A stretch of 1,567 nt of DNA, taken from the NCBI GenBank assembly GCA_000004985.1, contig GG739378.1; one strand, given 5' to 3'. Positions within the stretch are counted from its first letter, which is position 1. Each line of letters begins with the position of its first letter. Source of the DNA: Naegleria gruberi (lineage: Eukaryota). The notes beneath the pieces are model-generated. The model had not been told where the DNA came from. It did not search any database and saw only the letters and a list, made by a program, of their open reading frames with translations. A program made the position numbers and the translations under genes. Below are positions 1 through 1,138 of this stretch, one piece after another.

Positions 1-684
1 CCAAAGCAGCTCCAAACTTTCTTTCATCACATAAGGTTGTGGACATCCACAATTCAAATCAATTCCATCACAATAAGGTGCTGCCAATTGACAAGCTAAA
101 CTAAAATCTGTAGGATTATTAGCAGCAAATTGAACCACAAGAGGACTATCATAATAATGTGTTGTAAAATCCGAATCCCTGGCTTTTTGTGATTTATGAA
201 AACAATCCGACATTATCATTGGTGTATAAACAACATCACATCCATACTCTCTACACAACAATCGAAAGGCTAATTTACTATAACGAACCATTGGTGCTTG
301 TACTTTTAAATAGGTTCCCTTCTCCTTAGCCTCCTTGAACATATTCATCAACGAATGTTGTGGTTTTAATTCATCAATACTAAAGCCTTCCGGTAAATTT
401 TCTCCAACTCGTAATATATTATTATTAATATTATTATTATTACTATCATCATCATCATTTAAATTATTCTTATTAATAAAAGAATAGTTATTATTACTAG
501 TAAAATTGGTTGGAAGATGAACACAATTAGTTTCATTAACTAATGATGAAGGTCCTTCGGAATAATCAAAATCGTTTCTATCTAATTGAAAAGCACCCAA
601 ATCGATGCGGAGGGCATTATTATGACAGAATTGTGTCTCGGAAATGAATGAATTTTCGTCATCCTGTGTTGGTTGTTGAAGCAT
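1..684 (-). CDS. tRNA-dihydrouridine synthase (Dus family, Dus4-like), N-terminal portion. Partial: continues past the left window edge.
   Basis: My own minus-strand translation (codons on plus 3k+1..3k+3) is open from ATG (rc of 682-684) to position 1, with an in-frame TGA upstream at 736-738. Reading N to C: MLQQPTQDDENSF...NKNNLNDDDDSNNNNINNNILRVGENLPEGFSIDELKPQHSLMNMFKEAKEKGTYLKVQAPMVRYSKLAFRLLCREYGCDVVYTPMIMSDCFHKSQKARDSDFTTHYYDSPLVVQFAANNPTDFSLACQLAAPYCDGIDLNCGCPQPYVMKESLELLW. 'APMV', 'VQFAAN' and 'DxNxGCPQ' are conserved Dus-domain motifs. The Dus4-like assignment is from memory; no search was run. The ATG is preceded by an A8 run (AAAAAAAAATG), a typical dictyostelid initiation context. 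The ORF tool did not list it because it has no stop inside the window. Confidence 0.85.
   Translation of the reverse strand, partial: MLQQPTQDDENSFISETQFCHNNALRIDLGAFQLDRNDFDYSEGPSSLVNETNCVHLPTNFTSNNNYSFINKNNLNDDDDSNNNNINNNILRVGENLPEGFSIDELKPQHSLMNMFKEAKEKGTYLKVQAPMVRYSKLAFRLLCREYGCDVVYTPMIMSDCFHKSQKARDSDFTTHYYDSPLVVQFAANNPTDFSLACQLAAPYCDGIDLNCGCPQPYVMKESLELLW
418..459 (-). repeat. Imperfect trinucleotide microsatellite (ATT)n then (ATC)4 on plus. On the minus strand it encodes an Asn/Asp homopolymer tract (NNNINNNN-S-DDDD-N) inside the Dus N-terminal extension.
   Basis: Plus 421-444 is attattaatattattattattact and 445-459 is atcatcatcatcatt, in frame with the Dus CDS. In-frame trinucleotide repeats coding poly-N/D are typical of Dictyostelium genes. 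Confidence 0.8.
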
Positions 685-1076
685 TTTTTTTTGTGCATGA
701 AAATTATATTTGGAGAAACTCTTCAAATGCCCACATCAATTTTGGTGAGGGTAAAAGTTTCTGTCATGATTGTAACACAGAATCTGACCTTAATCACTAT
801 ATTCATGAATGCCCTGCTCTGGATAGTGCCAGATACTTTTGCTTGTCAAAAATATCTGATATTCTTGATCAGAGAGAGTGTAAACTCACTCATATTCAAT
901 TCAGACCAGAAAAGCATCACCATGTACTCTTCTTCCACCATTCTGGAACCACATTCTTCGAAGATGGATACGTACAACAATACCCAGACATTGCAGAGAA
1001 ATGGCCTGAGATTCAGGGAGCCATTTCTAACTTTGTCGGCCGCTCCTATAGATATTATTATATTGACTCAATGTAA
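648..1076 (+). CDS. Hypothetical 142-aa Cys/His-rich protein (candidate; unrecognised family)
   Basis: Frame-3 ORF from ATG 648 to TAA 1074-1076. All three minus frames carry stops across 740-1076, while plus frame 3 is open. Third codon positions are strongly A/T-biased, as expected for coding sequence in this genome. The region is less AT-rich than the flanking intergenic DNA. It contains a C-x2-C ... H-x2-H-x-C ... C cluster (FCHDCNTESDLNHYIHECPALDSARYFC). AATAAA lies at 1121-1126, 45 nt past the stop. Against it: there is no internal ATG, and the only start (648) overlaps the divergent Dus start by 37 nt. The first ~90 nt also coincide with the Dus A-run and 5' region. I recognise no homology. 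Confidence 0.35.
   Translation: MNFRHPVLVVEAFFFVHENYIWRNSSNAHINFGEGKSFCHDCNTESDLNHYIHECPALDSARYFCLSKISDILDQRECKLTHIQFRPEKHHHVLFFHHSGTTFFEDGYVQQYPDIAEKWPEIQGAISNFVGRSYRYYYIDSM
685..692 (-). promoter_or_regulatory. Oligo(A) tract immediately 5' of the Dus ATG (translation-initiation context)
   Basis: Plus strand has T8 at 685-692, which is A8 on the minus strand abutting the ATG at 684-682. The A-rich -1..-8 context matches the dictyostelid Kozak-like consensus. It supports 684 as the start, but it is a sequence motif only. Confidence 0.4.
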
Positions 1077-1120
1077 ATTTACAAATTCAAAGAGAATCTG
1101 AATAGATTCGTTATTATTGC

Positions 1121-1138
1121 AATAAAAGATTTTTTTTT
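1121..1138 (+). terminator. Putative polyadenylation signal AATAAA followed by a T9 run, downstream of the plus-strand candidate ORF
   Basis: aataaa at 1121-1126, then gat, then a T run 1130-1138. AATAAA is frequent by chance in AT-rich DNA, so support is weak. Confidence 0.25.

Follow-up and report, generated by a model that had tools for sequence, protein, structure and literature searches.

The analysed window is a stretch of 1,567 nucleotides from Naegleria gruberi (NCBI GenBank assembly GCA_000004985.1, contig GG739378.1), read on one strand from 5' to 3'. It contains an open reading frame (ORF) on the plus strand at 648-1076, located next to a gene for a tRNA-dihydrouridine synthase (Dus). 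In a preliminary description this ORF was presented as an unrecognised small gene. It is, with high confidence, the 3'-terminal part of a dead copy, truncated at its 5' end, of an N. gruberi non-long terminal repeat (non-LTR) retrotransposon, a long interspersed nuclear element (LINE), and its last 123 residues are the C-terminus of the LINE ORF2 protein.

An exhaustive HMMER search of the ORF against 1.84 billion representative proteins revealed 16 relatives. The top match was P0121 (XP_002668658.1), an N. gruberi "predicted protein" of 391 aa (E = 9e-82), to whose final 124 residues the ORF residues 19-142 align with 99% identity. In the alignment, residues 20-142 match the C-termini of the three N. 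gruberi NEG-M proteins P0121, P0137 and P0138 without a single difference (100% identity); for residues 1-19 no matching sequence was present in the HMMER search or in the alignment. The LINE ORF2 3'-terminal coding sequence together with its stop codon is thus assigned to 703-1076 (+). P0121, P0137 and P0138 are encoded on separate N. gruberi scaffolds and carry identical tails, which shows at the protein level that the sequence is present in dispersed copies.

In the longer relatives the shared domain is located at the extreme C-terminus, e.g., at residues 677-804 of P0122 (813 aa) and at residues 1092-1211 of P0125 (1213 aa, E = 8e-20). Upstream of the tail, P0125 contains the Pfam domains Exo_endo_phos (AP endonuclease, APE), RVT_1 (reverse transcriptase, RT) and RNase_H, and other members of the family show RVT_1 and RNase_H or RNase_H alone. 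The RT region of P0125 matches PDB chains of R2 and of human L1 (LINE-1) ORF2p. All HMMER matches to the tail domain were to the C-terminal ends of APE-RT-RNase H proteins or to fragments of such proteins, and the ORF is therefore read as a LINE ORF2 tail. The predicted domain order of the family ORF2 is APE-RT-RNase H followed by a CCHC tail of ~120 aa. A related cluster of 30 members was found in N. fowleri. Two full-length relatives were available, the Logan contig L004, in which ORF1 is followed by an ORF2 of 1213 aa, and L005 from N. fowleri, in which the two frames have 532 aa (ORF1) and 1203 aa (ORF2).

Several other searches gave no informative result. A word-index protein search with the ORF returned no candidate, which is a false negative, since the ORF and the cluster representative P0121 have an uninterrupted run of 123 identical residues in common. 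In Pfam, the only hit of the ORF was HypA (PF01155) with E = 0.037 and 14.5 bits, below the cut-off of 28.9 bits, so no significant family was assigned, and four tails of the family matched no Pfam family at E ≤ 10. A search with the full-length ORF2 P0125 returned 10 proteins, none of them informatively named, and a scan of viral contigs with the tail-domain alignment revealed no relatives.

The protein sequence of the tail is already deposited in GenBank at other loci, as unnamed "predicted proteins" of N. gruberi. Four N. gruberi gene models, P0121, P0137, P0138 and P0139, represent parts of the LINE; their annotation reads "predicted protein" or "RNase H type-1 domain-containing protein". 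P0138 (NAEGRDRAFT_60001, 1179 aa) consists of ORF1-like sequence fused to parts of ORF2, with most of the RT skipped. These four models look like misannotations in the reference proteome that are derived from transposable elements (TEs). The finding itself carries little weight: a false candidate gene is removed, and XP_002668658.1, NAEGRDRAFT_76759 and NAEGRDRAFT_60001 are LINE fragments and not host proteins. No papers describing Naegleria LINEs were found in our literature search. The TE content of N. gruberi was given as 0.28% in a 2026 preprint (10.64898/2026.06.24.734286).

Structure and junctions of the insertion

The first residue identical to the LINE protein is Y20 (nt 705), and the two preceding bases fit the expected codon, which places the junction at ~703. 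The coding part terminates at the LINE family's own stop codon (1074-1076). The copy is thus truncated at its 5' end and intact at its 3' end, with identity from residue 20 to the shared stop and a 3' untranslated region (3' UTR) in common with L004. This 3' UTR has a length of 52 nt (1077-1128, +). Window positions 1090-1137 show 83% identity to the 46 nt after the L004 ORF2 stop, whereas the protein tails are only 37% identical. The 3'-UTR block common to the window and L004 is AGAGAATCTGAATAGATTCGT, and the 3' end that copies of the element would be expected to share is ...GCAATAAAAG.

A block of 21 nt within the 3' UTR is identical in the window (1091-1111) and in L004 (5234-5254) and is present as a variant in the contig L023 (549-570). 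It bears the hairpin GAATCT-GAAT-AGATTC (1094-1109, +), which is identical in L004 and takes the form GAATCT-CAATA-GGATTC in L023. The distance between the hairpin and the following T-run is conserved in the window and in L004. Folding of the window 3'-UTR RNA gave z = -0.13 and thus no thermodynamic support; the hairpin is backed by its conservation alone. The block may serve as a recognition element for the reverse transcriptase. A metagenome scan with a conserved 18-mer of the 3' UTR matched 16 loci, none of which has a LINE tail upstream, and all of them are regarded as chance matches. An AATAAA hexamer is located at 1121-1126 (+).

The insert is flanked by the perfect 10-bp direct repeat ATTTTTTTTT, with the 5' copy at 683-692 and the 3' copy at 1129-1138. 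These two copies are the sole T≥7 runs of the window (two T9) and are of low complexity. On the opposite strand, the 5' copy corresponds to the A9 tract before the Dus ATG. The 3' copy is neither preceded nor followed by poly(A). Between the 5' copy and the first base of the LINE there are ~10 nt, GTGCATGAAA (693-702, +), which are read as junction filler. The two copies of ATTTTTTTTT are read as the putative target-site duplication of an insert at 693-1128. Removal of the insert and of one repeat copy from the window gives a Dus upstream region ...CTAATTATTTAAAAAAAAATG, which is similar to the A-rich surroundings of start codons in other Naegleria genes, e.g., that of the N. lovaniensis Dus gene, ...TTTTTAATTAAAATG. 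An empty allele would be expected to read ...GAAGCATTTTTTTTTAAATAATTAG...

The ORF is accordingly a chimera of 19 non-LINE codons and 123 LINE ORF2 codons plus stop, as seen in the translation, the HMMER matches and the alignment. Its specific N-terminus is MNFRHPVLVVEAFFFVHEN. The ORF had been described as divergent from Dus. The two do lie on opposite strands, but they are not separated: the first 37 nt of the ORF (648-684, +) overlap in antisense the Dus start codon (684-682, minus strand) and Dus codons 1-12. ATG 648 is therefore accidental, and together with the first 19 codons it is flanking or filler DNA that is in frame by chance.

Common 3' ends and position of the family copies

Five copies of the family were inspected at their 3' ends. 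In all of them the stop codon is followed by a short UTR, AATAAA, 1-13 nt and an A with a run of six to nine T (the A+T-run); the poly(A) or simple-repeat tail which is usual, but not universal, in many LINE clades was found in none of the five. The 3' ends read GCAATAAAAGATTTTTTTTT in the window, TTAATAAATTTTTTTT in L004 (at the end of the contig), AAAATAAACAAATTTTTT in L023, CTAATAAACTTCATATGTATTTTTTT in L022 and ACAATAAACTAATTAGATTTTTTTT in L005. Besides the two copies of the window, A+T-runs are located at 1004-1012 and 6617-6625 in L005, at 351-358 and 806-813 in L022, at 73-79 and 591-597 in L023, and at 5272-5279 in L004. Four copies have a 5' flank, and in each of these the A+T-run is the best direct repeat at the junctions. 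Its 5' copy always follows a C, which results in CAT(T)n. This CAT is the Dus start codon in the window and the annotated start of a Nas2_N/PDZ gene in L005; in L023 it begins an ORF which is cut off by the contig end, and in L022 one of 37 codons. In at least two of the four copies, a divergently oriented host gene thus starts with this CAT, and in the others it is a likely start codon.

Capture of a LINE cDNA at a DNA break, independent of the endonuclease, or recombination, with the two T9 runs as coincidental A/T tracts of the host, appears improbable in the light of these shared ends. Such an event would fit the low complexity of the repeat, the generic occurrence of A-runs upstream of ATG in Naegleria and the ~10 nt at the 5' junction, as filler would be typical of break repair. 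It does not fit the finding that in all four copies with two flanks, which come from at least three different genomes or samples, no direct repeat between the ends is better than the A+T-run, nor the lack of any further T≥7 run in the window and the conserved hairpin-to-T-run distance between the window and L004.

Insertion of a LINE by its own machinery is favoured, and a number of points weigh against this assignment. The ends of the element in N. gruberi are deduced by protein identity and by comparison with relatives from other species. The repeat ATTTTTTTTT is homopolymer-like and A-runs before ATG are common in Naegleria, so that it supports a target-site duplication less strongly than a repeat of complex sequence. 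The ~10 nt at 693-702 are unaccounted for, the poly(A) tail of many LINEs is missing, and translation of the chimeric ORF may formally occur.

Naegleria start codons generally follow A-runs. It is possible, and we put it forward tentatively, that the family has a specific target, the A-tract directly ahead of host start codons, and that its copies always point away from the gene. The nick would then be set on the sense strand of the gene at 5'-A(n)T^G. As a speculation, the A-rich primer might pair with the U-run after AATAAA in the element RNA, which would account for the T-run, in place of poly(A), at the end of the copies. This proposed priming can be likened to R2, in which read-through transcripts pair with the 28S target. 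The duplicated A-tract would keep the native -1 to -10 context of the host gene, and this could explain how such insertions are tolerated in a genome with a reported TE content of ~0.3%. A plain preference for long A/T tracts without recognition of the ATG could yield the same pattern, and four to five copies do not separate the two. If target specificity applies, it would be a new one for LINEs in a TE-poor, gene-dense protist, directed to the A-tract beside start codons and with a T-run replacing poly(A). It would add to the solutions of the Dictyostelium TRE and yeast Ty elements, which have integration preferences directed to tRNA genes, and would have a bearing on how Naegleria core promoters work.

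Proposed origin of the copy

LINEs are copied by target-primed reverse transcription. The target is nicked by the endonuclease, and the 3'-OH released in this way serves as primer for cDNA synthesis, which begins at the 3' end of the element RNA. Synthesis frequently stops before the 5' end is reached, which gives rise to 5'-truncated copies. A full-length element encodes ORF1 and an ORF2 with AP endonuclease, reverse transcriptase, RNase H and a CX2CX7HX4C tail of ~120 aa. A full-length member would have been transcribed, its ORF2 protein would have nicked the target, and the 3'-OH would have primed reverse transcription. Synthesis would have halted, or the cDNA would have been joined, after ~426 nt (703-1128, comprising 123 codons, the stop and the 52-nt 3' UTR). 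Insertion would have taken place in the A9 tract directly upstream of the Dus start codon with duplication of the 10 bp ATTTTTTTTT. The resulting copy lacks endonuclease, RT, RNase H and a promoter of its own, and would be immobile and without evident function; a functional product is not expected from it. As the protein tail is identical to that of other copies, the copy is very young, and the still perfect flanking repeat likewise points to a recent insertion. The open frame reflects this youth and not selection.

Coding properties of the ORF and the case for a host gene

Plus frame 3 is uninterrupted from ATG 648 to the stop at 1074-1076. From the local base composition, one stop is expected per 14-16 codons, and the probability of 142 stop-free codons is 3-9e-5; only 2 of 5000 shuffles of the ORF region reached a sense frame of this length. 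The claim that 429 nt of open frame in AT-rich DNA indicate coding sequence is thus confirmed, as the ORF is a genuine protein-coding stretch, derived from a LINE. Likewise, the minus frames are closed as described (the longest open stretch in the ORF region has 73 codons), and AATAAA is found 45 nt beyond the stop as a plausible poly(A) signal. The AT content is indeed lower than in the flanks, with a GC content of 0.36 across 693-1128 against 0.22-0.28, and of up to 0.36-0.45 within the ORF, the flanks ranging from 0.19 to 0.29. The third codon positions had been described as A/T-biased like those of real genes in this genome. This does not hold, since their GC content (GC3) is 0.35 in the ORF compared with 0.22 in Dus and 0.20 in the leucine-rich-repeat (LRR) gene of the same window, so that the usage is not host-like.

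Plus frame 1 contains a second sense ORF, likewise of 142 codons (673-1101), which lies almost entirely over the reported one. None of the four relatives has this frame open, and 4.7% of synonymous codon shuffles leave it intact; an overlapping gene was therefore rejected, and the frame is probably due to chance. An imperfect inverted repeat at 833-881 (+) inside the ORF gives a match to MIR1120 in Rfam. In the search of the window this match reached 23.9 bits, compared with a gathering score of 86, and was treated as chance.

Could the copy have been domesticated? The LINE CCHC domain would then have been captured beside Dus and would be expressed from ATG 648 as a small zinc- or nucleic-acid-binding protein. 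The intact frame of 142 codons with its in-frame ATG, the confident fold prediction described below and the downstream poly(A) signal would agree with such a gene, and divergent promoters are presumably frequent in compact genomes. We nevertheless judge it very unlikely. The LINE part shows 100% protein identity to at least three other copies and hence no independent evolution, nothing corresponding is found at the orthologous site in N. fowleri and N. lovaniensis, and the perfect flanking repeat indicates a recent insertion. In addition, the ATG is embedded, on the opposite strand, in the coding sequence of Dus, GC3 is unlike that of host genes, and the 19 N-terminal residues are without relatives. 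An independent small host gene for a metal-binding protein unrelated to mobile elements, as originally proposed, has a negligible probability: the lack of a significant Pfam family (HypA at E = 0.037 is below threshold) and the empty word-index search would suit it, but it is refuted by the HMMER matches, which show the domain nowhere else than at the C-terminal end of APE-RT-RNase H proteins and in fragments of these, by the Pfam domains of these relatives, by the multi-copy nature and 100% tail identity of the family and by the absence of synteny.

Neighbouring genes and orthologous sites

The 5' part of the host Dus gene (Dus4-like; 1-684, -) lies outside the element and was identified by the Pfam domain Dus and by protein matches. 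The nearest proteins of this fragment are from Naegleria fowleri (75%), N. lovaniensis (63%) and Willaertia magna (57%). The DNA had been assumed to be of dictyostelid origin. It comes from the heterolobosean Naegleria gruberi, and the nearest relatives of both Dus and the ORF are from Naegleria. In N. fowleri (L001) and N. lovaniensis (L002), neither tblastn nor tblastx matched the ORF to the Dus locus, although Dus itself aligns well. The preliminary description had named a lack of conservation of the reading frame in syntenic regions as a refutation, and no trace of the frame was found at the syntenic site in either species. Upstream of Dus at L001 and L002 there are small divergent genes (121 and 97 aa), which are unrelated to the ORF. 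Beyond the first 10 nt ahead of the start codon, everything that precedes Dus is now LINE DNA.

The N. gruberi Dus protein carries an N/D-rich low-complexity N-terminal extension of ~95 aa (400-684, -), and conservation with N. fowleri begins at ~nt 399. In N. fowleri, only ~36 aa are found ahead of the conserved part. The 3' end of an LRR gene (1330-1567, -; Pfam LRR_6, E = 2.5e-7) is located upstream of Dus on the same strand. The neighbours of Dus differ in N. fowleri and N. lovaniensis, and synteny is broken on the side of the LRR gene.

tRNA-like sequence downstream of the insert

A tRNA relic next to the ORF had been proposed as well. By eye, a tRNA-like remnant is visible at 1292-1227 (-) with a T-arm/B-box GAGTTCGACCC and an acceptor 3' strand. 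It terminates in GGTCGTGAGTTCGACCCCCACGGTGGGCGA, and TTTTT (1219-1215) follows 6 nt further. It is located 88 nt from the insert. Inspected by eye, it has the look of a Met-CAU-like tRNA of which the T-arm and the acceptor 3' strand are left, followed by an RNA polymerase III terminator; the 5' half is degenerate. ARAGORN did not call it at the default, 90% and 80% thresholds; it was called at 70%, among six obviously spurious calls. In Rfam, it was not called in a 161-nt slice even at E ≤ 10. In addition, no tRNA was detected by ARAGORN near the copies in L004 and L005, and a tie between the ORF and a tRNA remains unsupported.

TRE3 elements of Dictyostelium are LINEs which insert ~100 bp downstream of tRNA genes, and TREs end in poly(A) (PMC5006619). 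The window resembles this arrangement: 88 nt separate a tRNA-like 3' end from a LINE tail that is truncated at its 5' end, contains a zinc-finger domain and points toward the remnant. It differs in the organism, in the failed detection of the tRNA-like sequence, in the lack of tRNAs near L004 and L005 and in the absence of poly(A). A Dictyostelium TRE3 fragment was rejected on account of the Naegleria relatives of Dus and ORF and the failed tRNA detection.

The tail domain and comparison with known retrotransposons

The translation of the ORF contains both the cluster CHDC...HYIHEC and the stretch EKHHHVLFFHH, which had been pointed out as potentially metal-binding or His-rich. Among 12-13 tail sequences of the family, the residues W22, R23, N24, H29, I30, C39, C42, H50, C55, G100, W119, Q123 and G131 (ORF numbering) are invariant. 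Four of them form a CCHC zinc-knuckle motif, C39-x2-C42-x7-H50-x4-C55 (762-812, +), and from this pattern C39, C42, H50 and C55 (CX2CX7HX4C) are very probably a zinc site. The proposed Cys/His cluster is thereby supported in these four positions; H53 is not conserved and mostly replaced by Y in the relatives. In the His-rich stretch, only H98 (HHSG motif) is conserved. An AlphaFold model of the tail based on the family alignment was confident (pLDDT 83.5).

The C-terminal CCHC domain of L1 ORF2p is located, like the tail described here, at the extreme C-terminus of an ORF2 with APE and RT. It is needed for retrotransposition and touches nucleic acid in target-primed reverse transcription. The spacing of the motif is CX3CX7HX4C in L1 and CX2CX7HX4C in the Naegleria family, which thus has one residue fewer between the first two cysteines. 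The Naegleria family contains RNase H between RT and tail, while human L1 is devoid of RNase H, and its copies lack the poly(A) tail of L1. There is no detectable sequence similarity between the tail and L1, and Pfam was negative. A second close system is the zinc-knuckle region after the RT thumb of the R2 protein. R2 ranked first in a Foldseek search with the tail model, with a match that is not significant. The I, Tad1, LOA and ingi/L1Tc groups show the same order of APE, RT, RNase H and a C-terminal Cys/His motif, features that are well established for these clades; they are likened to the Naegleria family by domain order and not by phylogeny. The tail of ingi/L1Tc is of the C2H2 type, whereas that of Naegleria is CCHC, and these groups usually finish in poly(A) or simple repeats, whereas the Naegleria copies finish at a T-run.

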